Virus record (IMG/VR): IMGVR_UViG_3300032282_001564
Coordinates: 1-64,000 of that record
From: a virus
Length of the DNA: 64,000 nucleotides
Direction: 5' to 3' (one strand)
In this document: in pieces, positions 28,201 to 49,879 of the stretch
Layout of the letters: every line of letters starts with the position of its first letter
Numbering within the stretch: the stretch's first letter is position 1
Position numbers and translations under genes: made by a program
Notes under the pieces: model-generated
Seen by the model: the letters and a program-made list of their open reading frames with translations, nothing else
Told to the model about the DNA's origin: nothing
Databases searched by the model: none

Positions 28201-28392
28201 TTGGCTCCAAACATTGCCAGCGTATTAATTATACCTGCGGATGCTACACTAGTATTTGGTAACTATTTCCAAATAGATGCAGAACCGTGGGAAATCATCA
28301 CAAGTGCCGCAACAGTAAATGATATTGAAATAGTTTCAGCTATTACTGCGGCAACATTAAATCTCGGTAATCCGTTATTAGGAATTCGTTAA
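25222..28392 (+). CDS. gp6: Baseplate wedge subunit, gp6-like
   Basis: DF.SYDFETLR, NDF.ESSE, RENFLDTA...SILKLA..L.Y, FGDG, QNRMITGEDY. Confidence 0.85.
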   Translation: MAQTTRQTNLLIEQDWTKVYQAFTNADFTSYDFETLRNSMIGYIKTYYPETFNDFLESSEYLALIDTICFLGQSLAFRTDLNARENFLDTAQRKDSILKLARMLSYNPQRNTGASGLIKIDSISTTESVYDSNSTNLANTVIHWNDLSNDNWLEQFNTVLNTALITNQTIGKPGNSQKITGIQTDEYAISLNTNTMPVAGFDVSVNGTPTHFEAVSATTIGQSYIYEEDPTVSGKFNILYRNDNNGNGSVNTGFFFYFKQGTLQGTAFNIQNSIPNNYITVDTKNINNTDHWLYALSVNNAPQTKWKAVPALAGSNVIYNQLTDKNLYQINTLDNDRVNLIFGDGSFSNIPQGNFRFYYRVGNGLAYTITPDDFAQVIIALPYIGKNGNLETLTFTASLKYTVTNAAGSQTMASIKASAPQQYYTQNRMITGEDYNIFPMTSFNSIQKIKAVNRTSSGVSLYLDAIDPTGSYSTTNIFGDDGNLHVTGSSVADYNTDEFDFLTTNDIYATLYNDVIPIVNSTEMRNYYYANYTRYNVIADSRPVKFLQTDASTRTSSGYLQGNISYQGPTGSTLYHDITQQIGYGINGNLKYVTTGSTLQFVAPEGFHFSPEHAMLPGGPQLPGDSINFWASVQSVVSNNDPNTPSLVTFNTVVPSGAILSDLDLTGNHAVIPAYKNDFNNTLISTIVGQVKAKLNFGLRYDQTNQVWTNILPSELGASTDWLLRFRYFQGLYYVDYRSLTYRFSSASGTKFYYDPTSTVYSSATGTNINDIIKVLKINTPPENPLGFTSNDVVWQIYNNVTETDGYVNNSSVLVKSPETQMELVPDNPDLYKTVVGLTSSYRPDLYFQYKHNTPSRNRIDPTPVNLIDLYVLTADYTSSYFNWLRDLTGTVTEPSAPSSSSLELAYSDLNNYKTVSDSLIFNAAKFKPLFGAKANRAFQAKFQIVTNPSIRVTDNEIKSQVITAINAFFDIANWDFGDTFYFSELAAYLHSTLAPNIASVLIIPADATLVFGNYFQIDAEPWEIITSAATVNDIEIVSAITAATLNLGNPLLGIR

Positions 28393-34300: not shown

Positions 34301-37300
34301 TAAATTTGCAGAGTTTGTACTTGATCAAAGTGTATTCACAGTAAACCCTGTGACTGTCTTATTAACAGATCATTATAAAGATGGCAACGCTATTGTTAAC
34401 CTAGCCGTTACTGGTAACACATTAACTTCTAATGTTTATAACTCTAACGATCTATTAAGCACGAGTACAAAGATGTACGATAATAGATTGCCTAACGCCA
34501 AGGTAATGACAGATTTGCCAACTGCGGGCTTTGTAAACATTAACGACATCGACGATACTATTTTTGATCTGAGCACTATTGATCAATCACAAGATACAAA
34601 CTATTCGATTGGCAATAAAATTTGGGTAGCAAAGGATTCAAATAAAAAGTGGAATGTATTCCGTGTTTGTGAAACAGGAATACTAGCTAAAAAATTAACT
34701 TATACACTTGACGATTATGTACAAGTTGATTTTGATAATCCGCACAATTTCTTAGTTGACGATTATCTAGTATTGAAAAACTTTAACAAGAAATGGGATG
34801 GTTTATATAAAATTGTAAACATACCAAATCGTGTATCTGTTACTATACAACTTAAAGATAAAACAAAATTAGGATATCTAATATCAGTTAGCCCATTTTC
34901 GGGTTCAGGATTAGTACATAAGCTATCATCCGTTGTACTAGATTCTGTCAAGGAACTACCTGATGTTCGTCCATTGTACGACTGGGACGACGGCGAACAC
35001 GTTTGGATTGAAAATTCTTCACCATTGGGCTGGGGAACATTTACTGTTAAAAGACCTTGGCTGGCAAATACAGTACAGTCAAGAACCAGTGCCACTCCTG
35101 GAGTACGTGGAAACTATGGCGCGGCAACAGCATCTAGTTTAGATAACAATTGGTTATATGTTGGCGCACCTGGTACAAGCACAGTAGAGATTTTATCTAA
35201 TGTAAATTATGTTTATAGTTCTGCTAACGTAATTAATAGTGCAGACAATAACTTTGGTTATAGCATTGCAACATCAAAGGACTTTGTTGTTATTAGTTCT
35301 CCTGATGCAGGAAATGTACGTGTATACACACACGGATCTACAACACCATTACAGGTAATTACATCAGCTAATGCCAATGGTAAGTTTGGATCAAGCGTCG
35401 ACATCAGCAATGACGGACATTGGTTATATGTGTCTGAACCTGCTACTGGTGTAGTACACGCTTATACCACAGTAGCAAACACAGCCGCTAATTTAAACTA
35501 TGTTAAAGTATCAACTAAAACTGTAAACAGTAGCATTATTAAAACCAATGCCAGCGGTACACGATTATTTGTCGGTGCACCAAACGACTTTAACGGATAC
35601 AACCAAGGCGGTAATGTTTATGTATACACTAGAACTGCTAACACAGTTTCATCTGCACAGACAATTTCTGGTGTATTTAAAAACGATAACGCAAGATTTG
35701 GTACAAGTTTAGACATTGATAAAACTGGTAATAACTTGTTTGTTGGTGTGCCTAACTCAACTATTTCTACTTACGCAAACGGATTGGTAGAACGTTGGAT
35801 ATACAACGGATCACAGTTTGTGCATCAAGCAAATATCGCACACCCTGGCAATACACCGGGCACATTTGGTAGTAGTATCAGTGTAACAGCAGATGCAAAA
35901 TTATTAGCGGTTGGTAGTGCTGGTAGCCAAGGCGAAGAAAGTACTACATTTGATAATGATGCAACACAAATTGACAAGCACACAACTAAATTCATTGATT
36001 ATATTATGAACAGTGGTGTGGTCTATATGTTTGATTCATTAATAGACTACAAAGTAGCCAATGATCCTGGTACATATATCTACGGACAAGAACTATCTGC
36101 ACAATTAACTAGCGGAGACCAATTTGGTACTAGTATAGTTGCAACTAGAGATGTTGTTGTAGTTGGCGCACCGGGCGTAACTGTTGATGAATATGTTAGT
36201 GCTGGTGAATCACACGTTTATGTAAATGCAAACAAAACGCCAATGTGGGATCGTACCAGAGAACAACAACCTGTTGTAGACATTGACAGTATTAACAGAA
36301 CTTTTGTATTTGATAAAACAAACAACAACATTCTAGCCGCACTAGATTATTTTGATCCAAACAAGGGCAAAATATTAAATTCTGTTGCTAGTGATGTTGA
36401 TTATCAACGTATTGGCGATCCAGCATTATACAACGCTGGTAGCACATCATCGGTTATTGATCTGCATTGGGGGCCAGACCAAGTTGGAAAAATTTGGTGG
36501 GACCTTGACCACATCCGATTTATTGATTATGAACAGGATGATTTATACTATAGATTGAACCACTGGGGTAAACGATTCCCGGGCAGTCAAGTACTAGTTT
36601 ACGAATGGGTTGAAAGTGATGTACCGCCAAGCAAGTACGAAGGCGATGGTACGCCATTGTACATGGACGATAGCAAATATTCTACTTATGGATTTGTTGA
36701 CCCAGCTGGCGCAATCAAATTGAAATACTATTTCTGGGTATCAGAAAAAACAACAATTAATGTCGATGCTGGAAAATCTAACAGCGCCTACAGCATTGCG
36801 GCTTCAATTGAAAATCCACAAAGTCAGGGAGTTGCATACGCAACAGTATTGCGTGATGATTGTTTAGCATTATACAATGTTAGCCAAGTATTGTCAGGTA
36901 AAAATGCAGTTCTACACATTACTAGCCGTAGCACAAACGCTGGGTTGATACACAGTGAATATGCACTGGTACAAGAAGGTAACCCTGCAAGTTTAATCCC
37001 GGGTTCTATTAAAGATAAGTTTATTGACAGTTTAGCCGGTCAGGATAAAATTGGTAATCCGGTTCCTGATCCTACACTAACACCAGCACAGGCCTATGGT
37101 ATAAACATTCGACCAAGACAAAGTATGTTTGTAAGCCATGACTTGGCATTGTCTAACTATCTTGAACTAGTTAACAATATTATGGCTACATACCAAGTAG
37201 CACGCCGAAAAGTTTTAACATTATTAAACAGCGAAGAATCTGCACCAAATATTAACACAGGCTTATACAGCCAGATTGTTAATAACGATACAGAATTGGG

Positions 37301-40300
37301 CTATATTAATACAACCAGCCTCGCTACAGGTTACAGCATCCTGGTAGTCAGTGATGAAACTCAAATGGGTAAATGGGCAATTTATACTTGGGACGGCGAT
37401 GCATGGGCAATATCTCGAGTACAGGATTATAAAACCAATTTATACTGGAACTATGCTGACTGGTACACATCAGACTATGATGTTACACGAGCCCCGGACT
37501 TAACTGTAGCAACAGCATTGGAGTTAGGAAAATATACTCTAGTGGCTGAAACTTATGTTAAAGTAACAGATGCTGGTAATGGCGATTTTGAAATTTATTA
37601 TATAGATGCCGATCTTAATAAGACTCTAGTAGGCATCCAAAACGGTACAGTTCAAATATCCACTGGCAGTATTCCTAAAATGGAATTACGTCAACTTTTA
37701 ATTGCAATGCAAGAAGAAATTTTTGTTGATGATTTAGCATTAGACTATAATAAGATTTTCTTTGCGTTAATTAAATTTGCTCTGACTGAGCAAAAAAATC
37801 CTGACTGGGTATTTAAAACCAGCTTCTTGACTGCTACACAATACCTACGTAAGTTAGAGCAATTCCCTAGCTATATTGCTGACAACCAGGATTTCTACAA
37901 AGAATATATTAACGAAGTTAAACCATATCGCACAGTACTACGTGAGTTTGTTGTAGATTATTTACGTAATGATAGCTATAGCGGTGACGTTACTGACTTT
38001 GATTTACCACCATACTGGGATTCAACATTAACTGTGTATCGTAGTCCAAGTGGCGAACAGGCATATGACACTACTTTGCTAACACAAGGCAAATACAATG
38101 CGTGGTCAGACAACTACAAATATAAGTTAATCGGAATACAAGTTAACCATGCAGGTACTGGATATACATTACCTCCGCAGATTGTTATTATTGATGAAGG
38201 CGGCCATGGAGCTGAAGCATACGCAACTCTTGATGGTAATGGCGGCGTCGGTGAAATTATAGTTACTAATCCAGGCGAAGGATTTGTTATAGCACCTAAG
38301 ATTATTATTAACGGTAGCGGAACTGGCGCAGTTGCAAGCCCAATATTACGTAATGTCTATCTAGATGACATGAGCGGTTACAACCTAGTGCGTAGTTTGT
38401 CTACTACTATCAAATTTGATAGAACTAGTTACACAAATCCAAATACCTTTGTATTTTGGGACACATTAACATCGGCAAACGTTGGACAACAAATACCAGA
38501 TGGTACAATCTTACGTACTGATGATATACTACGTAAATTAGTTATTAACAATTGGGTAGCAAATACTTCTGCTAACCTAGGTTCATTGATGTACCGCGGC
38601 GGTAACACATATACTGTCACCGGCAATGTATACCAAGCTGTGTTTAACAGTAACGTATTGTCTAACTTGGCATTAATAACAGCAAACGCTAGATCGTTAA
38701 CTGTGGACGCTAATATTACATTCCCGTATGCAAGTGTTACATCATTGACAGCCAAAGACTTTGACAATGCAAATGATCGTATTGTAGCCTTTAATGGTAA
38801 TATTGATCTTTCCAACGTAACAGATGGCATTGACTACATGGGCGTTATTGTTGATGGTAATGAATATATTCCATATGCCGAAAATGATAGCGTAATTGAA
38901 AGTCGTTATACTGACTCTTTAGGTGTTGATCCAAGTGGCATAGATATTGACGGTGGTGGTTACGTTGACGTTTACAGTAGTCATGCACCACAGGAACTAG
39001 TACCCGGTCGTATGTATGACAGTTTGAATATGTCGGTGTACACAGCCGGTGATAACCAATCGTTGGCCTATCGTATATTCAACGACATGAATCATAATAT
39101 TAACTATTATAGAATTTCATCTGATTACACTACAACATTGTCTGCTAACTTGTCATTGACTGATGAGTATATGTATGTTGACGATGCAACAAAATTACCT
39201 ACACCAGATACTGTAAGAGGTTATCCTGGCGTAGTATTTGTCAACGGTGAAAAAATTACCTACTGGAGAAACTATGCAAAAGAAACTCCAACAGCATGGG
39301 TAGCAAACCTAAGGGTTGGGATCGGCGAATTAATTTCGTACCAAAGCAATACATACATCACTACTGGAAATGTATTTGCTCGTTATTTTGCCAACATATC
39401 ATCGCATACCAATAATTCATCAAACATTGATATTTCTGGCAATGCTAATGTGCGTCTGGTAACAAACATAAACACTATAACGCGACTACGTAGAGCAGTT
39501 GAGGGCACCGGTCCAAGTAACGTTCATTTAGCTGGGTCAAGAGTTGTTGCTTCAAACTTTGAGCAGGCTGTTCCTGGTACTACAATTACAACAAAAACTA
39601 TTGCATCTGAAACATCTTATCAGACTACAGATGTTGCCAGTGTAGTGTTGGCAATGGATTTAACTAACCCTATTAGTGCTAACCTTGGCGACAATCTACA
39701 ACAACAAATTGTAGTTGATGATTGGCGTAACGGTGAATACTCTGTTGGTAGCTTTGTTTACTGGGACGGTGACACATACCAAACTACAGCAAATATATTT
39801 GTTCGTACAGTGGGATGGCAGTCTAATACAGTTTATCCTACCGGTTCATACGTAACACAAAATGGTAACACCTATGTTACTACTGGAAACGCATGGGCAC
39901 AAAACAAATCGTGGACAGCCAATACTGTATTTGCAACTAATTCCAATATCTATATTGGTTCAAACAGTTACTACACAACAACAGGTAACGTTTATGTAAG
40001 TATACCTACCTGGACCAGCAATACCGTATTTGCTACTAACACATCTATCTATCACAATGGTAATGTGTATCGAGTAACCGGCAACGTTTATGCACCAAAT
40101 GTAACCTGGGCTCCAGGATTGATTGTTCCTACTGGTAGTTACATTAACTATCAAGGTAGTACATATCAAACTATGGGCAACGTTGGTTATATTACCCGTG
40201 GCAATATAACTTATGCTAACGGAAACATTATCAGCTATGGTACAACATCATTGGCATCATGGAATAAATTGGCCTGGCGTGTAATACCAGTCGACAATAC

Positions 40301-41069
40301 TCCTGATTCAGGATTCTTTACTGCAAGTGCTAATTTAGTCAACACCGGATCTATTTTACAATTTGCAAATATTAATGCAAACGTACAATTCTTGTATCGT
40401 GGTATCAACGCCGGCTTTAACAGCATTAAGTCAAACGTTCAATACTTACCAACTGCTAATATTGCATGGCAACCAAACACTTGCTACACAGTGGGTGACT
40501 ATATTTCCTACAACAGCAATGTCTACATAATTGGTGGCAATATTTGCGGTAACAGTTTTGCTAACATTTCTGCTAACTTGGTCTATAACGGTCCTTTACA
40601 AACTCCAGACCAAAGCAAATTTGCTAGTATTGTAAACTCACACAAAGTAGTACAGGCGTTTACTGGAAATGCTATTACCAGCGTAACATTAAAAGTTATG
40701 GATACTGTAAGTAACGTATCACGTGTTCCAGTAATTATTACTGTTGGTAGTATTACTGCCCTACCGGAGATTTTTGACGGCCCATCTGGCTTTGACATTG
40801 AATCGTTTGATAACAACCCAGGTTCTCTGTACATCAACGGCAACGCCGCTTATAGCTTTGTTGAAGCCGCTGGCGTATTGGGTAACGTATCATTGTACGG
40901 AACTTCAAACGTTAGCCCGGGTACTGTTGTTAATACTGAGCGTGTTTGGTACAACCGCGGGCTTACAAGTGCAGTTGATGGCTACGGATTATACAATAGC
41001 ATAACAGCACAAGCAACATTCTTAAAAGATAAGCCAGGCTTTCTGCCTGATCCAGGAGTAACGCCATGA
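28392..41069 (+). CDS. Giant (4225 aa) baseplate wedge/virion protein with beta-propeller and Trp-led repeats
   Basis: Follows gp6-like gene; FG.S....L.VGAP propeller repeats (~35100-36200); YINEVKPYRT; G.GY..PP.I.I.G.G.GA repeats; W..NT.Y..G..V.Y.GN.Y repeats. Confidence 0.75.
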   Translation: MAKVRSINFLPQVFRSDANQRFFSSTVDQLVTDSTNRVIDGYIGRKFSPTYKLGDNYTPESTTSRKAYQLEPGVVIKDDDKNIIFSSGYADLLTTLNTNRSSTKNHQRLFAADYYNYDGRFDYDKFINYTNYYWLPDGPESVEVTAGSVPFQRTFVVTKNTAVGGYTFSDLDGHPNTQITLARGGTYQFIVDQPGSKFWIQSQLGLSGRDPNTPTVNTREVYGVQNNGSDSGVVLFSVPQKNAQDFYTQMSRDGIVDIATTIPYTKIQNRLFSDFIREYPEGIDGITSLLNRKTIVFVGNQVDSSEWTTPVFPSDDVTNTSPVTDHEIINNPTRTGIWQINLTALPNGDSVIQVNPYGPVYQQHRIYVRSGETYGSVHVWLNNLYRYNVIPVITADADYLYYQDGATGNFCGEIKLIDNASEPINIDRDIIGKKGYTSPNGVIFTNGLKIQFDSNVSPDTYYGAKFTDFQTWSKDVIALGGVVTGGIARLNGKIIGDWSNNQGWIYNNEYYVEGVGQAIKLVSTRFLQVPLHLSADIQTAGDYITINRASQDSNTWSSTNRWFHKDVLAATAKYNSQSEIDYGPNLSARRPIIEFEPNLQLWNFGRKAKTKVELFIDTATDAFVDIEGKMSYTLDGILLKPGMRIIFSRDYDQNVKNNIWEVQIETINSSNFIRLIQTADDPVLDGENIFVKLGSNADKIYRFNGTANSWNECQYKSSFNQEPMFDLVDADGYSFGDTTIYPGTTFAGTRFFGYAHGSGNNDVVLGFPLKYQNFNNIGDIVFDNYYDTQTFNYTGSTVECSSGYLYKDVGLATEAKVNNWVSGVEPTLQYQLLTTFYEGRVITDATSTEFAYVQIDTLPNKSATVSYFKVYLNNTLLTNGVDYDVTKYGVYNIILFTNDENKNIKLSVGDKIDVAIYSDTPSTNTESYYEIPNNLEYNPLNETFKTITLGQLRTHYNTLIENTAQSVASSRPIQDSYLKKQGGTLLQQSSPLVYAMAFLNDPDANFIDSINLARKEYGKFKNKFLNLCETLTTIDYNDPVIGVDTILQNINAIKNSSFSWYYSDMVPQGKNYNSVVYTVLNARQTNYEISSIFDYTQLSNRAVLVYVNGEQKVLGPDYTFSLVSPAIIFSTTLTIGDTIEIRDYFDTDGNYIPETPTKLGLYPKFEPEIYTDITYQIPVQVIRGHDGSITPAFGDFRDQYILELEKRIYNNIKADYKQNMMELYDIIPGRFRTTDYSAIEWARLLSHSFLQWTGANNLDYLTNTWYEPDNHWTWNYSLGFKDVVDGSNLRGSWRAIYEYWFDTDTPNLTPWEMLGFGSKPSWWEDRYGPAPYTQGNAVLWDDLEAGYIWNNGNPYTDTRFARPGLSNFIPVNNEGNLLSPTEIPLTKQYTTTNAGKPYSPGERGPVEQAWVRSSDYPFAIQVALAVAKPAKYFSTQIDISRFYTNPVTGHLSTAANKKLAPGLVVVNGDTTLGTTKRASGYLNWIADNIKHFGIDPVTTLNGFFRNFNVQLTHKVGGFTDQKLITVTAEQTSPGTKNASVLIPNENYHLYLNKSVPQAIISYSGVIVERVQNGYSVTGYDNSDPFFNVLLSRSSNNKEVIRVNAVDITILKDTNNTVIQIPYGTVFTSINQVVDFLVSYQRFLERQGFKFDQWDQDLQKQRDFVLSAQEFAYWSQQGFDIGSVIVLSPVSQKIEVNSIQSIVGSITNLPGQGRLFDQNFKPIKPTAFNIVRQPGDAGEFNTTTISTVDGSVIAFAKLNLVQFEHVLIFDNVDNFNDIIYLPHLGNRQFRLGIKGRATGNWNGTMSTDGYVYNDPIIDSWKQGTDYNTGDLVKFNNAYYTATTNIPASEKFGNNLWKQINPTDIQTGLLPSLGTNAQVFEKIYDMDNPPDAHDLQMFSAGLIGFRERPFLTDLGLSISNQAKFYQGYVKEKGTINAINALTRAKFNNVNGELNTYEEWAFQVGAYGDIDNNKFAEFVLDQSVFTVNPVTVLLTDHYKDGNAIVNLAVTGNTLTSNVYNSNDLLSTSTKMYDNRLPNAKVMTDLPTAGFVNINDIDDTIFDLSTIDQSQDTNYSIGNKIWVAKDSNKKWNVFRVCETGILAKKLTYTLDDYVQVDFDNPHNFLVDDYLVLKNFNKKWDGLYKIVNIPNRVSVTIQLKDKTKLGYLISVSPFSGSGLVHKLSSVVLDSVKELPDVRPLYDWDDGEHVWIENSSPLGWGTFTVKRPWLANTVQSRTSATPGVRGNYGAATASSLDNNWLYVGAPGTSTVEILSNVNYVYSSANVINSADNNFGYSIATSKDFVVISSPDAGNVRVYTHGSTTPLQVITSANANGKFGSSVDISNDGHWLYVSEPATGVVHAYTTVANTAANLNYVKVSTKTVNSSIIKTNASGTRLFVGAPNDFNGYNQGGNVYVYTRTANTVSSAQTISGVFKNDNARFGTSLDIDKTGNNLFVGVPNSTISTYANGLVERWIYNGSQFVHQANIAHPGNTPGTFGSSISVTADAKLLAVGSAGSQGEESTTFDNDATQIDKHTTKFIDYIMNSGVVYMFDSLIDYKVANDPGTYIYGQELSAQLTSGDQFGTSIVATRDVVVVGAPGVTVDEYVSAGESHVYVNANKTPMWDRTREQQPVVDIDSINRTFVFDKTNNNILAALDYFDPNKGKILNSVASDVDYQRIGDPALYNAGSTSSVIDLHWGPDQVGKIWWDLDHIRFIDYEQDDLYYRLNHWGKRFPGSQVLVYEWVESDVPPSKYEGDGTPLYMDDSKYSTYGFVDPAGAIKLKYYFWVSEKTTINVDAGKSNSAYSIAASIENPQSQGVAYATVLRDDCLALYNVSQVLSGKNAVLHITSRSTNAGLIHSEYALVQEGNPASLIPGSIKDKFIDSLAGQDKIGNPVPDPTLTPAQAYGINIRPRQSMFVSHDLALSNYLELVNNIMATYQVARRKVLTLLNSEESAPNINTGLYSQIVNNDTELGYINTTSLATGYSILVVSDETQMGKWAIYTWDGDAWAISRVQDYKTNLYWNYADWYTSDYDVTRAPDLTVATALELGKYTLVAETYVKVTDAGNGDFEIYYIDADLNKTLVGIQNGTVQISTGSIPKMELRQLLIAMQEEIFVDDLALDYNKIFFALIKFALTEQKNPDWVFKTSFLTATQYLRKLEQFPSYIADNQDFYKEYINEVKPYRTVLREFVVDYLRNDSYSGDVTDFDLPPYWDSTLTVYRSPSGEQAYDTTLLTQGKYNAWSDNYKYKLIGIQVNHAGTGYTLPPQIVIIDEGGHGAEAYATLDGNGGVGEIIVTNPGEGFVIAPKIIINGSGTGAVASPILRNVYLDDMSGYNLVRSLSTTIKFDRTSYTNPNTFVFWDTLTSANVGQQIPDGTILRTDDILRKLVINNWVANTSANLGSLMYRGGNTYTVTGNVYQAVFNSNVLSNLALITANARSLTVDANITFPYASVTSLTAKDFDNANDRIVAFNGNIDLSNVTDGIDYMGVIVDGNEYIPYAENDSVIESRYTDSLGVDPSGIDIDGGGYVDVYSSHAPQELVPGRMYDSLNMSVYTAGDNQSLAYRIFNDMNHNINYYRISSDYTTTLSANLSLTDEYMYVDDATKLPTPDTVRGYPGVVFVNGEKITYWRNYAKETPTAWVANLRVGIGELISYQSNTYITTGNVFARYFANISSHTNNSSNIDISGNANVRLVTNINTITRLRRAVEGTGPSNVHLAGSRVVASNFEQAVPGTTITTKTIASETSYQTTDVASVVLAMDLTNPISANLGDNLQQQIVVDDWRNGEYSVGSFVYWDGDTYQTTANIFVRTVGWQSNTVYPTGSYVTQNGNTYVTTGNAWAQNKSWTANTVFATNSNIYIGSNSYYTTTGNVYVSIPTWTSNTVFATNTSIYHNGNVYRVTGNVYAPNVTWAPGLIVPTGSYINYQGSTYQTMGNVGYITRGNITYANGNIISYGTTSLASWNKLAWRVIPVDNTPDSGFFTASANLVNTGSILQFANINANVQFLYRGINAGFNSIKSNVQYLPTANIAWQPNTCYTVGDYISYNSNVYIIGGNICGNSFANISANLVYNGPLQTPDQSKFASIVNSHKVVQAFTGNAITSVTLKVMDTVSNVSRVPVIITVGSITALPEIFDGPSGFDIESFDNNPGSLYINGNAAYSFVEAAGVLGNVSLYGTSNVSPGTVVNTERVWYNRGLTSAVDGYGLYNSITAQATFLKDKPGFLPDPGVTP
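39723..40200 (+). repeat. Five tandem ~31-33 aa Trp-led repeats (CBM5/12-like pattern)
   Basis: Trp codons at 39723, 39816, 39912, 40011, 40107 (spacing 93-99 nt); dispersed copies near 33846, 38553, 39297, 40467 and 43154. Confidence 0.75.
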
Positions 41070-41770: not shown

Positions 41771-43843
41771 ATGGCATATGATTTAGTTAAAACAGACGGT
41801 TCCCACTTAACAACCTTAGGTGATGGTTATATTGATACCAGCACTGGTATTAATCTAATCGGGCGTAATACCCCGAGCTATGGCGACGCACAAAACGAAA
41901 ACTTTATTCGTTTATTAGAAAATTTTTCTGGCAAGCTAGATCCAAGCCAGCGTGGCGCTATCAATGCGTTAACTGGTACACTATGGTACGACACTAACAC
42001 AAATACTCTAAGAGCATACGATGGTATAAACTGGAACACAACAAGTGGCCCAATCGTTGCAAACACCGCACCACTATTAACAGGCGGTACTGAATCATTA
42101 AAGTTTGGCGCACTATGGTATGATGTTCCTAACCAACAATTAAACACATGGACTGGTGTCGAGTGGAAATTAGTTGGACCACAAGCTAAAGCTAGCCAAG
42201 GCAAAAGCGGAAACTATGTTGAAACAATATTAGATCCAGCTGGTGTTTACCATATTGTAGTTAACCAATACATTAACAATAATTTAGTCAGCATTACTAG
42301 TTTTGATGGTGAGTTTACTCCATTGACAGCTATTGCTGGATTTACAACTATTCGTCCAGGTGTTAACTTAACAACATTAAATGTTAGTACTGTATTAAAT
42401 GGCACAGCAACTAACAGTATTAAATTTAATAACTTATTTGCCAATGCATTTGCTAGAGTTGACCAACCAACTACATTTACATCAGATGTTTCTGTCAACG
42501 GAAACTTAATTTTATCAAGTGCTAACATTTATTATAATTCTGCAAGCAAAAGTCTAACAGCATACAATTATGCACTAAATGGCAATGTTGACATTTATGT
42601 TAATAAGGCCGCAGTTAAAACTAGTGTACTACATATCAATGGCGCTACTGGTTTAGCAGAAATTAACGGCGACCCAGTTACTGATAATGGTATAGCAACA
42701 AAACACTATGTAGATCAAATTAATGACGAACTGTTTGCTAACCTAGATGTTACAACAGGTCGTTTACAATATGCCTTAGATAACTTTAATACTGATTATC
42801 TATCTAATATTAACGCAGTTATTAGTTCAACTAATGCCAACCTAAATGCTGTACAAGCAGGCATTAACTCAAACGTAACTACATTAACAACTTTAACAAA
42901 TAATAGATTAAACTATGCTAACGTCTACTTAAATTTCTTACAACAAGAAGTTGAAGTAGTAGCCTACAGTGATTCGTTAAAGGCCCCAATTGAAAGCCCA
43001 ACCTTTACTGGCAATGCAATAGCACCAAACGTAGCCGCAATGAATAATTATATTACTTCATTGGCAGGTAGTCAGTATCAAATTAGTTTAGTTAGCCCAG
43101 TAGCATCTGTAGCAAATGGCGCATTCTTAACGCAACAAATTGTATCTACTCCTTGGTCATCAAATACTGTATACAACTTAGGTTCGATTGTTTATCATGG
43201 CGGTAATAGTTATGTAGTCAACGGTAACGTGTTTGCTAATACATGGGCAAACGTAGTAACTGGTGCGGCACAATATGTATACAGCGGTTCTATATTAACA
43301 ACTGGAAACTATCGTGTAATCGCAAACGTAAATGGATCAACTACAGTCCCTGTCACTGTTATTACAAATAATTTAAACTTTACATACCCAAGCGTAGTTG
43401 AAATTAACGGCGTTGTAATTAATAATCAAATTACAGGAATAAGTTTAATTTCTCCAGGACTAAGTTACCCTGGTATTGGTGATAACAGCGGACGTATTGC
43501 AACTACAGCCTACGTTGATGCAACTGCTAACTTAGTATATGGTGACTATGATCACCGTATTAGACAAGAAATAACAAACCGTATTAATTATGTTGACACA
43601 TCAGTTGCACCAAAGGCAAATATTGCCAGCCCAACACTTACAGGAACGCCGGCCGCCCCAACAGCAACCCCATTAACTTGGTCAACAGCCGGGCACAATC
43701 CCTTAAGTGGTGACACAACTACAACTATAGCAACTACAGCATACGTAGCAACGTCAATATCAAATCAAAAATTTAACTATACAGTTTCTACACAACCTCC
43801 TAGTGGTGGTTCTGATGGGGATTTCTGGTTCCAGGTGGATTAA
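41771..43843 (+). CDS. Tail fibre / virion structural protein (paralog 1)
   Basis: N-terminal MAY....DG...DG..DTS..L.G.N...YG...NENF..LLENF, G.LWYD; SPTLTGTP.APT and IATTAYV fibre motifs. Confidence 0.75.
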   Translation: MAYDLVKTDGSHLTTLGDGYIDTSTGINLIGRNTPSYGDAQNENFIRLLENFSGKLDPSQRGAINALTGTLWYDTNTNTLRAYDGINWNTTSGPIVANTAPLLTGGTESLKFGALWYDVPNQQLNTWTGVEWKLVGPQAKASQGKSGNYVETILDPAGVYHIVVNQYINNNLVSITSFDGEFTPLTAIAGFTTIRPGVNLTTLNVSTVLNGTATNSIKFNNLFANAFARVDQPTTFTSDVSVNGNLILSSANIYYNSASKSLTAYNYALNGNVDIYVNKAAVKTSVLHINGATGLAEINGDPVTDNGIATKHYVDQINDELFANLDVTTGRLQYALDNFNTDYLSNINAVISSTNANLNAVQAGINSNVTTLTTLTNNRLNYANVYLNFLQQEVEVVAYSDSLKAPIESPTFTGNAIAPNVAAMNNYITSLAGSQYQISLVSPVASVANGAFLTQQIVSTPWSSNTVYNLGSIVYHGGNSYVVNGNVFANTWANVVTGAAQYVYSGSILTTGNYRVIANVNGSTTVPVTVITNNLNFTYPSVVEINGVVINNQITGISLISPGLSYPGIGDNSGRIATTAYVDATANLVYGDYDHRIRQEITNRINYVDTSVAPKANIASPTLTGTPAAPTATPLTWSTAGHNPLSGDTTTTIATTAYVATSISNQKFNYTVSTQPPSGGSDGDFWFQVD

Positions 43844-43846
43844 AAC

Positions 43847-44908
43847 ATGTCATATGGTCGCGGCGTCTTTGTTAAGCGAAACGGAATATGGACTGAAACA
43901 ACTCCACGAATCTTTGATTCAAATATAGCACCCGTTGATTCTGTAACAGTAACAATTACTGTAAATGGTGCTGGTGGTGGGTCGGGTGCCAGTGATGCCG
44001 CAGGTGCAGGATACACAGGAATCCCAGGTCGCCGTGTTACCGGTACTATTACACTACATCAAAATGATTTTTTACAAATAGCCTGTGGATCTGCAGGTGC
44101 CGACGGCAGTGGTGGCGGTAATGCCGCTGGCGGTACTAATCCATTGGGATTCAATGGTGGTCAGGGCGGATATCCTGGCAATGAAGGATCGTCCGGTGGT
44201 GGTGGCGGCGGCGGAGCTGCCAGTGTTGTTCTATTAAATAGAGAAGTTATTATTGTTGCTGGTGGTGGTGGTGGAGGCGGTGGCTCTGGTGCTAATTCCC
44301 CGGGACGTGCGGCCGCTAATGCAAGTCAAAATACAGGATCTAATTTAGGAACACCTGGGCAAGATAAAACCTACGGTGGTGAGCATCCAGCACCACAGGG
44401 TGGTGGTGGCGGTTGTAAGATTATCTGTACTAAGCTGTATCAGTTGGGACTACTACCAGAAGAAATATATGCGGCAGACCAAGCCTACGGAGAACAACTA
44501 CAAGAACGTATGCCTATGTTATACAATGGATATCGTGCATGGGCAGAAGTTGTTGTTGATTGGATGAGCGGAAGCGGTCCTAAGATGATGCCTTGGATGT
44601 CGGATGAAGAATTTAGTCAGGCCGCTACTAAGTGGTCAGTTAAGTGGGCAGAAGATATTGCTACACCATGGGCTGAAGAAATGGCTTATCAAATGGGATC
44701 AAGAGACCAAGGTAACTTAATTGGTAAAGCAATTATGGCTGTTGGTGTACCTATTAGTATCGTTGTTGGTGTGTGGAATAAAGTATTTGGCGAAAGCAAA
44801 CGCCCAACAGGATTTGTTAAAGGTATAGCATTAATTGGTGTATTTACATTGTTACGCAGTATTGTAGCAGTAGGAAATACTCTAAAGAAAATTAAAGGAA
44901 GCAAGTAA
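43847..44908 (+). CDS. Glycine-rich tail adhesin N-half fused to CKIICT C-terminal domain
   Basis: GAGGG polyglycine repeats to aa 189, then CKIICTKL...YNGYRAWA...IATPWAEEMAY.MG and hydrophobic/basic tail. Confidence 0.7.
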   Translation: MSYGRGVFVKRNGIWTETTPRIFDSNIAPVDSVTVTITVNGAGGGSGASDAAGAGYTGIPGRRVTGTITLHQNDFLQIACGSAGADGSGGGNAAGGTNPLGFNGGQGGYPGNEGSSGGGGGGGAASVVLLNREVIIVAGGGGGGGGSGANSPGRAAANASQNTGSNLGTPGQDKTYGGEHPAPQGGGGGCKIICTKLYQLGLLPEEIYAADQAYGEQLQERMPMLYNGYRAWAEVVVDWMSGSGPKMMPWMSDEEFSQAATKWSVKWAEDIATPWAEEMAYQMGSRDQGNLIGKAIMAVGVPISIVVGVWNKVFGESKRPTGFVKGIALIGVFTLLRSIVAVGNTLKKIKGSK

Positions 44909-46581
44909 TGGCAGACGGAGGCGGCGGAGGCGGCGGAGGCGGAGGCCACTGGGGCGGTATTGGTGGCGCAACCTACGGCGGAGATGATGGTGCGTATAGT
45001 GGAGCTTTTGGTGGCTCCTTGGCTCCTGCTGGCTTTACTACAAGCGTAGGACAAACAGGTCAAGGGTCGGTAGTAATTACATATACAGCTACACAACAAT
45101 TATTTGTTGGCGGCACAGTTACCCATAATGGTACAACGTGGACTCATACTTTTGCTCCGGGTACTACAACTTATTTTGTATCAAATTTCCCGGGACCTTA
45201 TAAACAAATTAGACGTGGATGGGCTAAACTCAATGGTACATGGAAAGATTTTTATCCTAGTACAGGTGCTGTGTCCTTTGCTTCATATGGACAGATAATA
45301 GCCAAACTACCACACCTTGATCCTTCAATGGAAGTTAGTCCCGATATTGCTGGTTTATTGTCGCAAGGTATTACTGTTACTCCGACAACTACTGGAGTAG
45401 CACCAGCGGATACTGATGCAACTAGGGAATGGTTTAACTATCAGAGTGGATTAATAGCCGCATCTGTAAAACAATATTATCTAAGTCAGGTTACTCCGTA
45501 TCCTGTAACTGCAAGTTATTTTGTAGCTCATATGCTACCTAAGCCAGATGGAAAAGTAGTAGTACAGGACTACACAGGTTCAGCAGTTAATTTTTCTAAT
45601 GTATCTAACATAGTAGGAACTGCATACACTTATATTTTTGATCCAACACATAACGCACAAAATTTAAAATACGAAGATGATTTTATAAACGCTGTAAACT
45701 CAGCAATTATGTTGAGCAACATTAATAAAGAAATAGCATGGGATAGTCCTAGCCAAAGTTTTACTTTTAAAGTACCAAGAGGCATTCATAGTGTCAGCGT
45801 TGACGTTGTCGGCGCCGGAGGCGGTGGTGGTGGGTCTGACGAAGTTGGTGTAGGATCAGCCGGAGGCGGTGGTGGGTCGGGTGGATATCAAATAAATCAA
45901 ATATTAAATGTTGTGCCAGGAGAGTACTTAACTATTACTCCGGGTAAACCTGGCTTTGGCGCACCTTTTGTAGGACGGACTACTCGAGCACCAGCCGGTG
46001 GCGCCGGTGGCGATTCTATCATTGCTGGAGAGTTTGGCAGTATAACTGCAACTGGCGGTAAAGGTGGTGCAGGTGGTGCTAGTGACGAAATACCACAACC
46101 AAGTGGCGGTGGAGGTGGCGGCTGTAAAATTATCTGTACTAAACTACATGAGTTTGGTTACTTGTCAGATCACATATACGAAGCTGACGAACGCTTTGGC
46201 GAATACTTACGAGCCAACGATCCATACGCATACTATGGATATGTTAAATGGGCGTCAGTTGTTGTTGACTGGATGGAAAAAGATGGCCCACAATGTATGT
46301 TCTGGATACGTGATAAAGAAAAGCGTAACCAAGCACAACGTACAATGGCAATTAACTGGGCAAGACGTATTGCTACACCATGGGCAGAACATATGGCCTA
46401 CATAATGGGCGTAGGAGAAAAAGACAATCGTGCAGGTAAGCTAATCATGAAAACAGGTATGTGGGTAAGTCGCATGATTGGTAAGTATACAAAAACAACA
46501 GAACCAACTAAGAGTGTAGCACTAGGTTACGTAATGTGGGCTACATTTGGTGTATTCTGGTTATTAGCGGGAGTTAAATAA
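44908..46581 (+). CDS. Glycine-rich tail protein: C-half of adhesin domain 1, linker, N-half of domain 2, CKIICT C-terminal domain
   Basis: Starts MADGGGGGGGGGG...GSVVITY; F.VP.G..SV.V.VVGAGGGGG; CKIICTKL from aa 406; hydrophobic C-terminus. Confidence 0.7.
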   Translation: MADGGGGGGGGGGHWGGIGGATYGGDDGAYSGAFGGSLAPAGFTTSVGQTGQGSVVITYTATQQLFVGGTVTHNGTTWTHTFAPGTTTYFVSNFPGPYKQIRRGWAKLNGTWKDFYPSTGAVSFASYGQIIAKLPHLDPSMEVSPDIAGLLSQGITVTPTTTGVAPADTDATREWFNYQSGLIAASVKQYYLSQVTPYPVTASYFVAHMLPKPDGKVVVQDYTGSAVNFSNVSNIVGTAYTYIFDPTHNAQNLKYEDDFINAVNSAIMLSNINKEIAWDSPSQSFTFKVPRGIHSVSVDVVGAGGGGGGSDEVGVGSAGGGGGSGGYQINQILNVVPGEYLTITPGKPGFGAPFVGRTTRAPAGGAGGDSIIAGEFGSITATGGKGGAGGASDEIPQPSGGGGGGCKIICTKLHEFGYLSDHIYEADERFGEYLRANDPYAYYGYVKWASVVVDWMEKDGPQCMFWIRDKEKRNQAQRTMAINWARRIATPWAEHMAYIMGVGEKDNRAGKLIMKTGMWVSRMIGKYTKTTEPTKSVALGYVMWATFGVFWLLAGVK

Positions 46582-46582
46582 A

Positions 46583-46996
46583 ATGGGAATTAGTTTAGAA
46601 GAGTTTTTAAAAGATAGAGAAGCTTGTGCTCATTGCGATGAAACAGGCAACCAAGAAACTTGCATTACTACATTGCTAAGTCGTGAAGATAGTTGCATTT
46701 TTTATAACGCATTAACTAAAAATGGTGACCCACACGATGATACTGATGTAGCGTATTTGCAAAACTTCCGAGCAGTAATGCCGGGGCACAAAGTACTTGA
46801 TTATTATGTTCGTGCTAGTAAGATAGTACAGGCAATCAATGATGAGCCCGGTGATCACACAGATCTATGGATGGATATTACTCGACAATATGTACATCCA
46901 ATTATTGCAGAAGTACGTTCTGGAAAAAATGAAGAAGCGTATGCCGCTATTTTGGCAATGCTTGATACATTAGAAACAGGAAAACAAGGAGAATAA
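46583..46996 (+). CDS. Stand-alone CFI-box-CTERM-like protein
   Basis: CITT...DD.....LQNFR.......DYY..A.KIV.AI pattern resembles CFI-box-CTERM domain from memory. Confidence 0.45.
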   Translation: MGISLEEFLKDREACAHCDETGNQETCITTLLSREDSCIFYNALTKNGDPHDDTDVAYLQNFRAVMPGHKVLDYYVRASKIVQAINDEPGDHTDLWMDITRQYVHPIIAEVRSGKNEEAYAAILAMLDTLETGKQGE

Positions 46997-46997
46997 T

Positions 46998-47306
46998 ATG
47001 CCAGCAGGTGGAGCAGGTGGATTACCAAACGGAAATCCTGGAGCAGACGGCGAACAAGGTAGTGTTGAGAGTAGTTCCAATACTGGTGGCGCTGGCGGCG
47101 GCACACCTTTTGGCGTAGGCGGATCTAGTAGTATTTCGTATCCTAACGGTACCAGAGGTACTGGGTATGGGGCAGGCGGCGGAGGTGCAAGTGCTCCTAA
47201 CGGTGTAGACCCTCTTAACTGGACGGGCGGCGATGGATCATTTGGGTTAATTACAGTATATTGGGGTCCTAAGTATGATCCTAACTATACTAATAAGCCC
47301 TATTAG
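46998..47306 (+). CDS. Glycine-rich protein: C-half of adhesin domain 2
   Basis: GGAGG.PNG, G.GYGAGGGGA, GGDG..GLITVYW; SD AAGGAG. Confidence 0.7.
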   Translation: MPAGGAGGLPNGNPGADGEQGSVESSSNTGGAGGGTPFGVGGSSSISYPNGTRGTGYGAGGGGASAPNGVDPLNWTGGDGSFGLITVYWGPKYDPNYTNKPY

Positions 47307-47342
47307 GAATTATGATAAGTATAGTATAAAGAGAACAGTAAT

Positions 47343-49289
47343 ATGGCATATACAATAACAAAAACAGACGGTACAACCCTAACAACTATCAATGATGGGT
47401 TCTTAGACACGAGTACCAGCCTAAGTTTACCCGGTCCAAACTATGTTGGATACGGTCAAAAACTCAACGAAAATCTAGTTTATTTGTTAGAAAATTTTGC
47501 CGGGAATAGTTCTCCAACTGGTTTAAACGTTGAAGGACAACTGTGGTATGACAAAATTAATACTACATTAAACGTCTTTACAAAATATGGATATCTTCCT
47601 GTTGCTGGTGTAGTAGTATCTGGCAGTCGTCCAGTAGTACAAAAAGTTGGCGACGTTTGGTTTAATACAGCAACTAATCAATATTACTTGTATGATGGTA
47701 CTGACTATAGATTAGTCGGGCCAGTGTACACTAAAACACAAGGCGTAAGTGGCGCGATTCCTGTAGATATTATAGAAAGCCTAGGCACACCACATAACGC
47801 ACTACAATTACAATTTGGCAATACTGTTATTGCTGTCATTAGCGAAAAACCTACATACGCAGTAGGCCCTGGTGGCGGCCCAACAGGGTTTACATATATT
47901 AATCCGGGTATTACATTTAGGAATGACATCCACGCTACCATAAACAGTAACCTGGTAGGAGACGTAACAGGTAACGTAGTAGGCTATATCACTGGTGATG
48001 TAGTTGGTAACCTTAGAGGTAATGTAGTAGCATCTACATTAGTTGGTAGCTTAACTGGTAACGTAGTAGCTACAACATTAAGAGGTAACTTAACAGGCAA
48101 TACTGTTACAACCAATAGCGTTACAACAAATTTTAGCACAGGCAATGCGGTAATTACAGGTGGTTACATAACCGGCATTTCCAATATTGGTGTAACTTCG
48201 GCAACAGTACAAAACCTTAGAGCCGCTAACGCTGTAATTACAGGTGGTTACATCAATAACATTGCTAATATCTCTGTTACATCTGCCGTAGTTAATAACA
48301 TTACTATGACCACTGGTACAATTGGCGCATTGTCAATCGGAAGTGCTCAAGTTGCATCTGGTGATTTATACAATATTGGTAATATTAACGTTACTACGAT
48401 TGAAGCTGATAACATTAGCACAGGCAACGCTGTAATTACTGGTGGCTATATCAATAACATAGTTAACCTTGGTGCAAGTACCGGTAGTTTCCAAAACTTA
48501 ACAGCATCAATCATTAACGCCCAAGGCGGTAACTTTAACGGCATCAGTAACTTTAATGCCTTCACTGCTCAAACAAATAACTTTAGTACAGGCAATGCAT
48601 GGATTACAGGTGGTAACCTTGTAAGCGTACCACTGTATAACAATACTATCACAGCCGCTAACCTGGTCAATGCTACAACCGCAACTCCTGCAACTAATAA
48701 TAGAAGTACAGCAGTAGCAACAACAGCATTTGTTCATAATGTTATGCCAACTGGTGCTATTATTATGTGGGCTGGCTCAATTAATAGCATTCCGTCGGGT
48801 TGGGCACTATGCGATGGTAGTAATGGAACTCCAGACTTGCGTGATCGCTTTATTGTTGGTGCCGGTACAGCAAACATTGGTACTACTGGTGGATCTGCTA
48901 CCACAACATTAACGCAGGCAATGTTACCTCCACACATACACTCAGTTAGTTTAACCGGTAATACCAATGCTGGTGGTACACACTCACACATTGCGTCAGT
49001 TACTGAAACAGCTCACACGCACACATACGATAGAGCTACATTAAATTCTGCCGCGTTTAACTATAACAATGCATATCCACAGAGTGGCACAGCATACACC
49101 TATAGTTTAACCAACACAAGTACTACAACTGGTACAAGATCTACGGGTCTAAGCGTTGGTGTTTCACAAGCCGCTGACCATATACACTCAATTACAATAA
49201 CAGGTAATACTGGATCTATTGGTTCTAGTACATCATTTGATACACGCCCACCATATTATACATTGTGCTTCTTACAAAAGGCGTATTAA
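47343..49289 (+). CDS. Tail fibre with collar domain and HxH tip (paralog 2)
   Basis: Shared MAY..LENF N-terminus; PTGAIIMW, GWALCDG.NGTPDLRDRFIVGAG collar; HIH, HSH, HTH motifs; RPPYY.LCFL. Confidence 0.85.
   Translation: MAYTITKTDGTTLTTINDGFLDTSTSLSLPGPNYVGYGQKLNENLVYLLENFAGNSSPTGLNVEGQLWYDKINTTLNVFTKYGYLPVAGVVVSGSRPVVQKVGDVWFNTATNQYYLYDGTDYRLVGPVYTKTQGVSGAIPVDIIESLGTPHNALQLQFGNTVIAVISEKPTYAVGPGGGPTGFTYINPGITFRNDIHATINSNLVGDVTGNVVGYITGDVVGNLRGNVVASTLVGSLTGNVVATTLRGNLTGNTVTTNSVTTNFSTGNAVITGGYITGISNIGVTSATVQNLRAANAVITGGYINNIANISVTSAVVNNITMTTGTIGALSIGSAQVASGDLYNIGNINVTTIEADNISTGNAVITGGYINNIVNLGASTGSFQNLTASIINAQGGNFNGISNFNAFTAQTNNFSTGNAWITGGNLVSVPLYNNTITAANLVNATTATPATNNRSTAVATTAFVHNVMPTGAIIMWAGSINSIPSGWALCDGSNGTPDLRDRFIVGAGTANIGTTGGSATTTLTQAMLPPHIHSVSLTGNTNAGGTHSHIASVTETAHTHTYDRATLNSAAFNYNNAYPQSGTAYTYSLTNTSTTTGTRSTGLSVGVSQAADHIHSITITGNTGSIGSSTSFDTRPPYYTLCFLQKAY
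48130..48620 (+). repeat. Four degenerate N(F/I)STGNAVITGGYI repeats in fibre shaft
   Basis: DNA copies of GC.GTAATTAC.GGTGG near 48145, 48230, 48428 and a variant near 48597. Confidence 0.7.
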
Positions 49290-49879
49290 TGATAATTGAG
49301 CTTGACAATTATGTAAATGCTGAGGACCTTGCTTATATACGTGAGCAAATTGAACCACGCATTACCGGATATGGCGAGCCAAACGAATACCATAGGGCTG
49401 GCACTACTTTAACAATAGCGAAAATTTCAGAATTAACAGATTTGAATTCTCGTTTGAGCAACATATTCCGCAATGTTAAAGTACGCATCAGAAGAGATTA
49501 CCGCCCAAGTTATAGTGGCATGGGTGATAGTGGCTACGAATTCCATAGATATCAGCCCGGGGATATTTGCAAACCCCACGGCGACAGCGAAATTGTAGCT
49601 GGGGAACCACATTTACGTTACGCCAGTGTGGTACTGCACTTAAATACAGTAGAAACTGGCGGGGAATTAATATTCCCAACCCAAGATATTCGGGTAAAAA
49701 CAAAAGCAGGAAAAATAGTAGTTTTTCCGCCCTACGGCATGTTTAATCATTACACAACCCCAAGCGAAGAAGTACGAGATGTAATAGTAACTTGGTTTAC
49801 ATATGATGGATTAAGTGTTGTTAAAAACGGCATAAATATAACGAGCAATCAAGGATTATTAAATGGCATACACAATTGA
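49289..49879 (+). CDS. 2OG-Fe(II) oxygenase (prolyl-4-hydroxylase-like)
   Basis: HGD, VLHLN...GGELIFP, G..VVFP....H, distal Arg; ATG overlaps upstream stop. Confidence 0.85.
   Translation: MIIELDNYVNAEDLAYIREQIEPRITGYGEPNEYHRAGTTLTIAKISELTDLNSRLSNIFRNVKVRIRRDYRPSYSGMGDSGYEFHRYQPGDICKPHGDSEIVAGEPHLRYASVVLHLNTVETGGELIFPTQDIRVKTKAGKIVVFPPYGMFNHYTTPSEEVRDVIVTWFTYDGLSVVKNGINITSNQGLLNGIHN

Follow-up and report, generated by a model that had tools for sequence, protein, structure and literature searches.

Organization of the locus

The DNA analysed here, referred to as the window, is the opening 64 kb (positions 1 to 64,000) of the 113-kb IMG/VR viral contig IMGVR_UViG_3300032282_001564, whose source is an uncultured, cyanophage-like virus. 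Between positions 43847 and 47306, four consecutive open reading frames (ORFs A to D) carry two glycine-rich domains that are split between genes, together with two copies of a C-terminal module, here called the KIIC module after its K-I-I-C motif. ORF A and ORF B are each composed of the front part of a Gly_rich_2 domain, a Gly run and then a module of 150-165 amino acids; the missing back parts of the Gly-rich domains open ORF B (for A) and ORF D (for B). An initial annotation, made from the sequence alone, had described an architecture that occurs twice, and this description is accurate with respect to the reading frames, the TGT codons at 44414 and 46123, both of which directly follow Gly runs, and the modules, which share 45-46% identity over about 160 amino acids, far above chance. 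The features are as follows.

43847-44908, plus strand: ORF A, 353 amino acids
43847-44413, plus strand: ORF A residues 1-189, front ~70% of Gly-rich domain 1, with a Pro-containing linker and GGGGG at its end
44414-44905, plus strand: KIIC module 1, C-terminal part of ORF A, 164 amino acids; six predicted helices, the last two hydrophobic, and a basic tail
44895-44910, plus strand: restart signals of ORF B, AAGGA followed by a TAATG stop/start overlap (read off the sequence)
44908-46581, plus strand: ORF B, 557 amino acids
44908-45087, plus strand: ORF B residues 1-60, closing part of Gly-rich domain 1, from the Gly run to the G.VVITY strand
45088-45750, plus strand: ORF B residues 61-281, middle domain without family match; P0153 is an orthologue
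45751-46122, plus strand: ORF B residues 282-405, front half of Gly-rich domain 2, with Gly_rich_2, PHROG 863 and P0155 matches
46123-46578, plus strand: KIIC module 2, C-terminal part of ORF B, 152 amino acids, 45% identical to module 1
46583-46996, plus strand: ORF C, 137 amino acids, small helical protein with four invariant Cys, belonging to the second cassette
46998-47306, plus strand: ORF D, 102 amino acids, back half of Gly-rich domain 2 (PHROG 863 positions 519-603)

Each restart has its own ATG, with the stop and start codons overlapping or 1-2 nt apart, and a Shine-Dalgarno-like site 7-10 nt ahead (AAGGA at 44895-44899 for ORF B, GGAG at 46570-46573 for ORF C and AAGGAG at 46986-46991 for ORF D). 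The pieces are therefore separate cistrons and not frameshift artefacts. Because the intervening 0.5-0.9 kb is conserved coding sequence, translational bypassing was rejected. The same split layout occurs in genes 028-030 of the cultured Synechococcus phage SynMITS9220M01 (family Kyanoviridae), the sole cultured relative found for the KIIC module, and in several IMG/VR contigs. At the DNA level, a search of cultured phages returned nothing beyond one 71-nt match. An Rfam scan of 43000-48000 revealed no group I or II intron or other RNA element (one chance match, E 0.35), and scans for promoters and terminators gave site numbers not above those of shuffled sequence.

Glycine-rich domains split between consecutive genes

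The front half carried by ORF B matches Pfam Gly_rich_2 (PF21722) over profile positions 3-114 of 226 (E 8e-11, 42.8 bits against a cut-off of 24.3). The corresponding match of ORF A (10-167 of 226, 16.6 bits) lies below the cut-off, as does its match to ALK_LTK_GRD (12-153 of 243); ORF A is colinear with the related proteins P0024 and P0058, both above the Gly_rich_2 cut-off. A whole Gly_rich_2 domain on one polypeptide is found neither in A nor in B, the rest being supplied by the start of B and by D. Indeed, with PHROG 863, residues 266-404 of B cover profile positions 392-519 and residues 4-89 of D positions 519-603, which is exactly complementary. The partial Gly_rich_2 coverage and these complementary coordinates bear out the proposal of the initial annotation that the Gly-rich domains break off mid-domain. 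The PHROG 863 match, together with the alignments to P0155 and P0024 described below, agrees with its further proposal that the genes starting at 44908 and 46998 supply the missing halves.

Unsplit homologues, whose existence the initial annotation had made a test of its reading, were found for both pairs: P0024 for A and B, P0155 for B and D. P0155 (482 amino acids) corresponds to B and D in a single Gly_rich_2 domain (profile 2-224 of 226, E 3e-16). Residues 64-114 of the ORF B front half align to P0155 320-370 and residues 10-89 of D to P0155 401-482, the C-terminal end of the protein; in the multiple alignment P0155 continues unbroken where the split proteins switch into the KIIC module. 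In P0024 (662 amino acids), residues 1-129 are colinear with ORF A 1-139 (41% identity, E 1e-10) and residues 196-321 with ORF B 26-124 (E 1e-10). Since the A and B parts lie in one chain, P0024 represents the unsplit form of A and B. Its second Gly-rich domain is itself broken, after about 31 profile positions, by a Hint domain and a KIIC module. As in the fragmented nrdA gene of phage Aeh1 (see below), therefore, unsplit homologues exist (P0155, P0024) and the break falls inside a folded domain. That Gly-rich domains 1 and 2 are truly split between genes is well supported by these profile matches and alignments.

The closing half is not always located at the very start of its protein, since P0153, the orthologue of ORF B, has about 40 extra residues (MSKYYSRRELYALGEPLG…) ahead of the Gly run. 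Neither the middle domain of ORF B nor the front half of ORF A has a close relative in the viral contigs, and the former has no Pfam match. A tblastn search of phages with ORF D gave no match, with the low-complexity filter as the probable cause.

Predicted reassembly of the halves

Co-folding of residues 266-405 of B with D gave an interface score (ipSAE, interaction prediction score from aligned errors) of 0.80-0.81 over three runs, against 0.00 for the best of three controls. Of 80 solved complexes, 58 reached the ipSAE mark used, as did 2 of 110 mismatched pairs; these counts are rough since the alignments were author-supplied and small. Between runs at least 77% of the contacts agree, and the partner has a predicted local distance difference test score (pLDDT) of at least 73. 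The best-defined contacts join the closing strand of D (83-88) to the opening strand of B (296-303), and the tightest ones span B 296-307.

With an unrelated partner, pLDDT falls to 40 for D and to 58-62 for the B half. These low values argue against each piece being a complete domain alone, the outcome that would have spoken against the initial annotation. Its suggestion that the halves assemble in trans is made plausible by the unsplit homologues P0155 and P0024 and by the modelled B:D interface (0.81 against 0.00), and the halves probably reassemble noncovalently, as judged from these models.

The KIIC module

A search of 1.84 billion representative proteins (E <= 1e-3, clustering at 50% identity) identified 858 protein clusters related to the KIIC module. 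The module is C-terminal in all of the best 150 of these 858 clusters, in proteins ranging from 73 to 5287 amino acids. In IMG/VR, 180 stretches encoding it were confirmed. The taxa of the Atlas clusters with the module are viral, and a search of 185,579 prokaryote genomes with a few exact motifs gave no true match, the two pattern matches lying outside open frames.

The AlphaFold2 (AF2) model of the module has six helices and no strands (pLDDT 95.1, predicted template modelling score 0.86). Sixteen residues are invariant over 135 domains: Ile4, Cys5, Leu8, Gly12, Asp22, Gly26, Gly39, Tyr40, Trp43, Ala44, Pro85, Trp86, Met90, Ala91, Gly104 and Gly111. In this conservation profile Cys5, Asp22 and Tyr40 are the sole polar positions without variation, and none of the invariant residues is His, Asn, Ser, Thr or Lys; TxxH and HN motifs are likewise absent. 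At position 1, the junction residue, 27 of 136 relatives have Cys, 52 have Gly and 15 have Ser. Cys5, the Cys of K-I-I-C located four residues past the junction Cys, is present in 136 of 136. The initial annotation had suggested that the module could be cleaved at the Gly|Cys junction; in the family this junction is not the conserved site, the invariant Cys being that of position 5.

The last helix is hydrophobic across the family and is followed by Lys/Arg. The 19-residue hydropathy has a median of 1.82 and is at least 1.6 in 73% of relatives; the maximum for module 1 is 2.15, and in module 2 the first hydrophobic helix contains Lys and Arg residues. Judged from its sequence and from the exclusively viral hits, the KIIC module appears to be a C-terminal domain specific to viruses, its last helix being hydrophobic and similar to a tail anchor.

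No match was obtained in Pfam or NCBIfam, and a literature search found no paper on the module. Foldseek comparison with the PDB gave none at E <= 0.001 (best match E 1.3), and with BFVD only nameless phage proteins from the module's own family. The best VIA-align matches, the novel E3 ligase (NEL) domains of SspH1 and SlrP (Z 5.7 and 5.3), were rejected as well under the stated noise level for helical bundles. NEL enzymes use a catalytic Cys, which makes this match tempting despite the low Z.

A flexible linker precedes the module in all relatives examined. It may consist of Gly runs, poly-Pro, poly-Pro followed by poly-Arg (SynMITS9220M01), Asn-Cys repeats or hydrophobic segments. The linker of SynMITS9220M01 gene 028 (L001:3669-5516), about 35 Pro and then 8 Arg, stands out as an extreme case of a low-complexity spacer, here in a phage that replicates. 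A large group of phage proteins of about 300 amino acids has an NCNCS-type Asn-Cys repeat tract directly before the module (loci L008, L012, L015-L020, L023-L034, L039-L045 and L081); in this group the downstream genes are a pair of small ORFs and one for a conserved protein of about 235 amino acids (…DRDRYHWYQNAQNMFW…).

Homologues of ORF D in L014 (4939-5682) and P0151 run on into another C-terminal module, which has a GGG-CCVISSAL start, a hydrophobic end helix and a layout analogous to that of KIIC. Between the two modules hhalign detected no homology (probability 5%).

Hint domains at the junction

Pfam recognises a Hint domain in 5 of 107 relatives (~5%), plus locus L055. The Hint, Hom_end_hint, Vint and Intein_splicing models detect it in P0024, P0058, P0071 and P0108, and none of them detects a Hint domain in the module itself. 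In P0058, an A-like front (profile 2-167) is followed by ...GGGC, then by CFDP...VHN and KKIICTKL; at the junction of window ORF A, ...GGGGGC leads directly into KIICTKL. Comparison of the two junctions places the Hint domain between the position-1 Cys and K-I-I-C. This suggests that the position-1 Cys is part of the linker or of the Hint site and not of the module. The residue after the Hint His-Asn is Lys in most relatives and Cys in P0108.

The question raised by the initial annotation, whether relatives have Hint domains at the same site, thus receives a mixed answer: they do occur there in about 5%, accompanying the KIIC module and, among those seen, never in its place. The presence of a Hint domain alongside the module is easier to explain if the module does not cleave itself, and the Hint domain could remove the module in some relatives.

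The module itself has none of the hallmarks of Hint domains and inteins, namely a beta-rich Hint fold, a conserved first-residue nucleophile and TxxH plus a C-terminal His-Asn. The all-helical model and the lack of a Pfam Hint match uphold its initial description as non-Hint. Ligation to the next polypeptide had also been suggested. The downstream pieces begin M-x-x-Gly; they offer neither a Cys, Ser or Thr nucleophile nor a segment resembling a C-terminal intein fragment (IntC), so that intein-type ligation is without basis. Split-intein trans-splicing was likewise rejected in the absence of an IntC segment and a +1 nucleophile.

Cassette exchange, carriers and ORF C

The position of the break in Gly_rich_2 (226 positions) depends on the lineage: ~31 in P0024, ~112 in B, L004 and L014, ~167 in A and P0058, and ~217 in SynMITS9220M01. 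It always falls at a Gly run, and in L005 an A/B-type domain is broken earlier than in the window. At the ~112 break, the Gly-rich halves of window B and L004/P0154 are 66-68% identical, against 41-42% for their modules. The B module is 95% identical to that of P0153 and 85% to that of P0058, whose carrier is A-like, and the A module is closer to the modules of L004, L005 and L014 (61-66%). These patterns indicate that modules have been exchanged between carriers, and the KIIC unit looks like an exchangeable cassette as far as sequence comparison can tell. Recombination between GGN repeats is a plausible candidate route for this exchange because both cassette edges code for Gly.

Carrier domains are of virion or surface type and include Gly_rich_2 (16 of 107), DUF4815, LamG, fn3, CBM_5_12 and chitobiase-type domains. 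Among modules with a Gly-rich carrier, about 8 of 16 have a Gly-rich restart within the next two ORFs; of the other modules, only 1 of 45 does. The restart of SynMITS9220M01 is also present, but under the counting threshold. The association of restarts with Gly-rich carriers points to a general C-terminal domain, the split arising when the module lies inside a Gly-rich domain.

A small non-Gly ORF (<=145 amino acids) directly follows the module in 36 of 60 distinct loci. One such family, that of ORF C, has 30 homologue clusters, none named, with invariant C15, C18, C27 and C38, and homologues lie at the same place in L014 and SynMITS9220M01. The AF2 model is helical (pLDDT 75), and a fold search gave no informative match (best Z 6.0). 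The four Cys, located in the poorly modelled first 40 residues, suggest a small metal-binding knuckle before a helical bundle.

The locus sits in a same-strand block of tightly packed fibre-type genes, which encode a 4225-amino-acid protein, two fibre proteins with a MAY(T/D)..K.DG..L start, a phage collar-domain protein and a 2-oxoglutarate-Fe(II) (2OG-Fe(II)) oxygenase. The 4225-amino-acid protein is a single ORF (28392-41069) just upstream of the fibre genes. The oxygenase gene (PF13640, E 6.5e-9; 49265-49879) has a fibre gene on either side, and the end of the one that precedes it overlaps with it.

Comparison with known systems

The closest precedent for the split is the nrdA gene of Aeromonas phage Aeh1, which is fragmented by the mobE endonuclease gene and whose halves reassemble (Crona et al. 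2011, PMC3045599). In both cases, a gene of a T4-like phage is cut into two cistrons by inserted DNA, and the pieces carry new terminal sequences at the break. The Aeh1 pieces are both translated and reassociate noncovalently (PMC3045599), and the same is predicted for those of the window. However, the KIIC insert is without a nuclease and is read in frame as a conserved 150-amino-acid domain fused to the upstream half. Moreover, it recurs at several positions in one domain type, and it is found at the C-terminus of unsplit proteins too, as an ordinary domain.

Hint domains (inteins, bacterial intein-like and Hedgehog C-terminal domains; PF01079, PF05203, PF14623) resemble the module in following a Gly-rich junction and starting at or near a Cys. 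They differ in that KIIC is all-helical, has a variable junction Cys and lacks the TxxH and HN motifs.

The carriers match the profiles of the polyglycine-II Gly-rich domains, which include Gly_rich_2 (PF21722), the ALK/LTK GRD (PF12810) and the phage S16 gp38 adhesin, and unsplit P0155 covers nearly the whole Gly_rich_2 profile. The known examples are single-chain, whereas here two polypeptides are involved.

Peptidase_S74 intramolecular chaperones, of about 150 amino acids, are strictly C-terminal on phage fibres and tailspikes and are released after assembly by means of a Ser-Lys dyad. The KIIC module is of similar length and is likewise strictly C-terminal on phage fibre-type proteins, but at the sequence level it has neither a Pfam match nor an invariant Ser or Lys.

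CFI-box-CTERM (NCBIfam NF041770) is also a C-terminal helical domain with a Cys-hydrophobic-Ile start after a linker. Nevertheless, neither window module nor that of SynMITS9220M01 has an NCBIfam match at E up to 10, and the hhalign probability is 0.3%. A literature search on the CFI box found no paper. A standalone CFI_box_CTERM ORF of 108 amino acids (L031:1261-1584, E 7.5e-12) lies directly after a KIIC protein.

Interpretation and alternatives

The explanation that we consider probable, though with some reserve, is that an exchangeable cassette has been placed in frame into the poly-Gly tracts of two polyglycine-II type fibre domains. It would comprise a flexible linker, the KIIC module of about 150 amino acids, in some cases a small helical protein (ORF C), and a ribosome binding site and ATG for the rest of the host gene. 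Two polypeptides would then contribute to each Gly-rich domain: A and the start of B to the first, B and D to the second. Pairing of the closing strand in the downstream piece with the opening strand in the upstream piece would form the Gly-rich domain noncovalently, so that A, B and D are joined in a chain of fibre parts. Neither Gly|Cys cleavage nor ligation would be needed. The module itself may hold or help its carrier at the membrane or assembly site and be dispensable or removed in the finished fibre; such a role in membrane tethering or as an assembly helper is a best guess and is proposed tentatively. Of the interpretation in the initial annotation, the split, the complementary halves, the non-Hint nature of the module and trans-assembly are retained here, and Gly|Cys processing and ligation are abandoned.

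Several observations weigh against this explanation. A module that is soluble or oligomeric, and not membrane-inserted, would be in keeping with the basic loop that separates the two hydrophobic helices and with the compact, confidently predicted fold. Cys5 is invariant yet unaccounted for, and self-cleavage at Ile4|Cys5 can be envisaged. The B:D co-fold score is a model confidence only, and may partly draw on solved single-chain Gly-rich domains. No nuclease, integrase or other mobility family was recognised in the module or ORF C with Pfam, NCBIfam or PHROG. Finally, the ~112 split is common to divergent phages (window, L004, L014, P0153, P0154), which indicates that it is old and stable and is as compatible with a design under selection as with an insertion that is tolerated.

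The initial annotation had proposed that the module is a non-Hint autoprocessing or sorting domain, which could be cut at Gly|Cys to leave a free or modified C-terminus or to ligate the next polypeptide; a variant of this model has the cut at Cys5. The strict conservation of Cys5 (136/136) and the linker always found ahead of the module would suit such an activity, and the Hint domain at exactly this junction in ~5% shows that processing occurs here in the family; moreover, the fold is without known match, so any function is possible. On the other hand, a self-cleaving module would make the added Hint domain superfluous, the junction Cys is found in only 27/136, and Cys5, Asp22 and Tyr40, as the only polar invariants, leave no His, Ser or Thr. 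The all-helical fold is also unlike every known N-to-S acyl-shift domain, the downstream pieces lack a nucleophile or IntC segment for ligation, and the co-fold indicates that a noncovalent fit suffices. We therefore regard autoprocessing in this sense as improbable: cleavage at Gly|Cys seems highly unlikely, and any self-cleavage by the module, for example at Cys5, only somewhat less so.

Two further alternatives concern what the module does for the phage. The cassette could be purely selfish, spreading by GGN-repeat recombination, riding on late fibre expression and being tolerated since the halves still assemble; the module would then serve the cassette or some unrelated trait of the phage, for instance the exclusion of superinfecting phages at the membrane. 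Variable break positions, the shuffling of modules relative to carriers, the existence of unsplit relatives, the restart signals brought by the cassette itself and the analogy with Aeh1 nrdA, split by mobE with reassembling halves (PMC3045599), are all in keeping with this. It is nevertheless rather unlikely given the missing mobility enzyme, the strong conservation of the module across 858 clusters and its presence, as a simple C-terminal domain, on many virion-type proteins that are not split, which suggests a role linked to those proteins. Alternatively, a virion-borne module might insert a buried hydrophobic helical hairpin into the host envelope after adhesin binding, in the manner of colicin-type pore formers. 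The helical bundle with its two hydrophobic C-terminal helices, the invariable proximity to receptor-binding-type domains and the compact confident fold, as for a soluble pre-insertion state, would be expected in that case. However, colicin or Bcl-2-type fold matches are not above noise and the first hydrophobic helix of module 2 carries Lys and Arg, and we see little chance that this alternative is correct.

Significance

KIIC is a large, well-folded family, represented by viral sequences only in the searches made and without counterpart in Pfam, NCBIfam or the PDB. Under a bolder hypothesis, which we judge unlikely as a whole, KIIC cassettes would be a new nuclease-free, in-frame gene-splitting module that targets poly-Gly tracts and by which polyglycine-II adhesin domains made as one chain become plug-and-socket connectors in two pieces. 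Exchange of the downstream pieces could then allow aquatic phages to swap receptor-binding tips, and the module would be a new membrane-tethering or self-releasing assembly domain with a chemical role for Cys5.

In many marine and freshwater phages, the KIIC module is a marker of fibre and adhesin genes. Where Hint domains occur, they consistently sit at its front edge, which provides a handle on whether it is removed in fibre maturation. If the halves do assemble, the split Gly-rich domains would constitute a natural split-domain connector, with a bearing on the shuffling of phage host range and with possible use in protein engineering.

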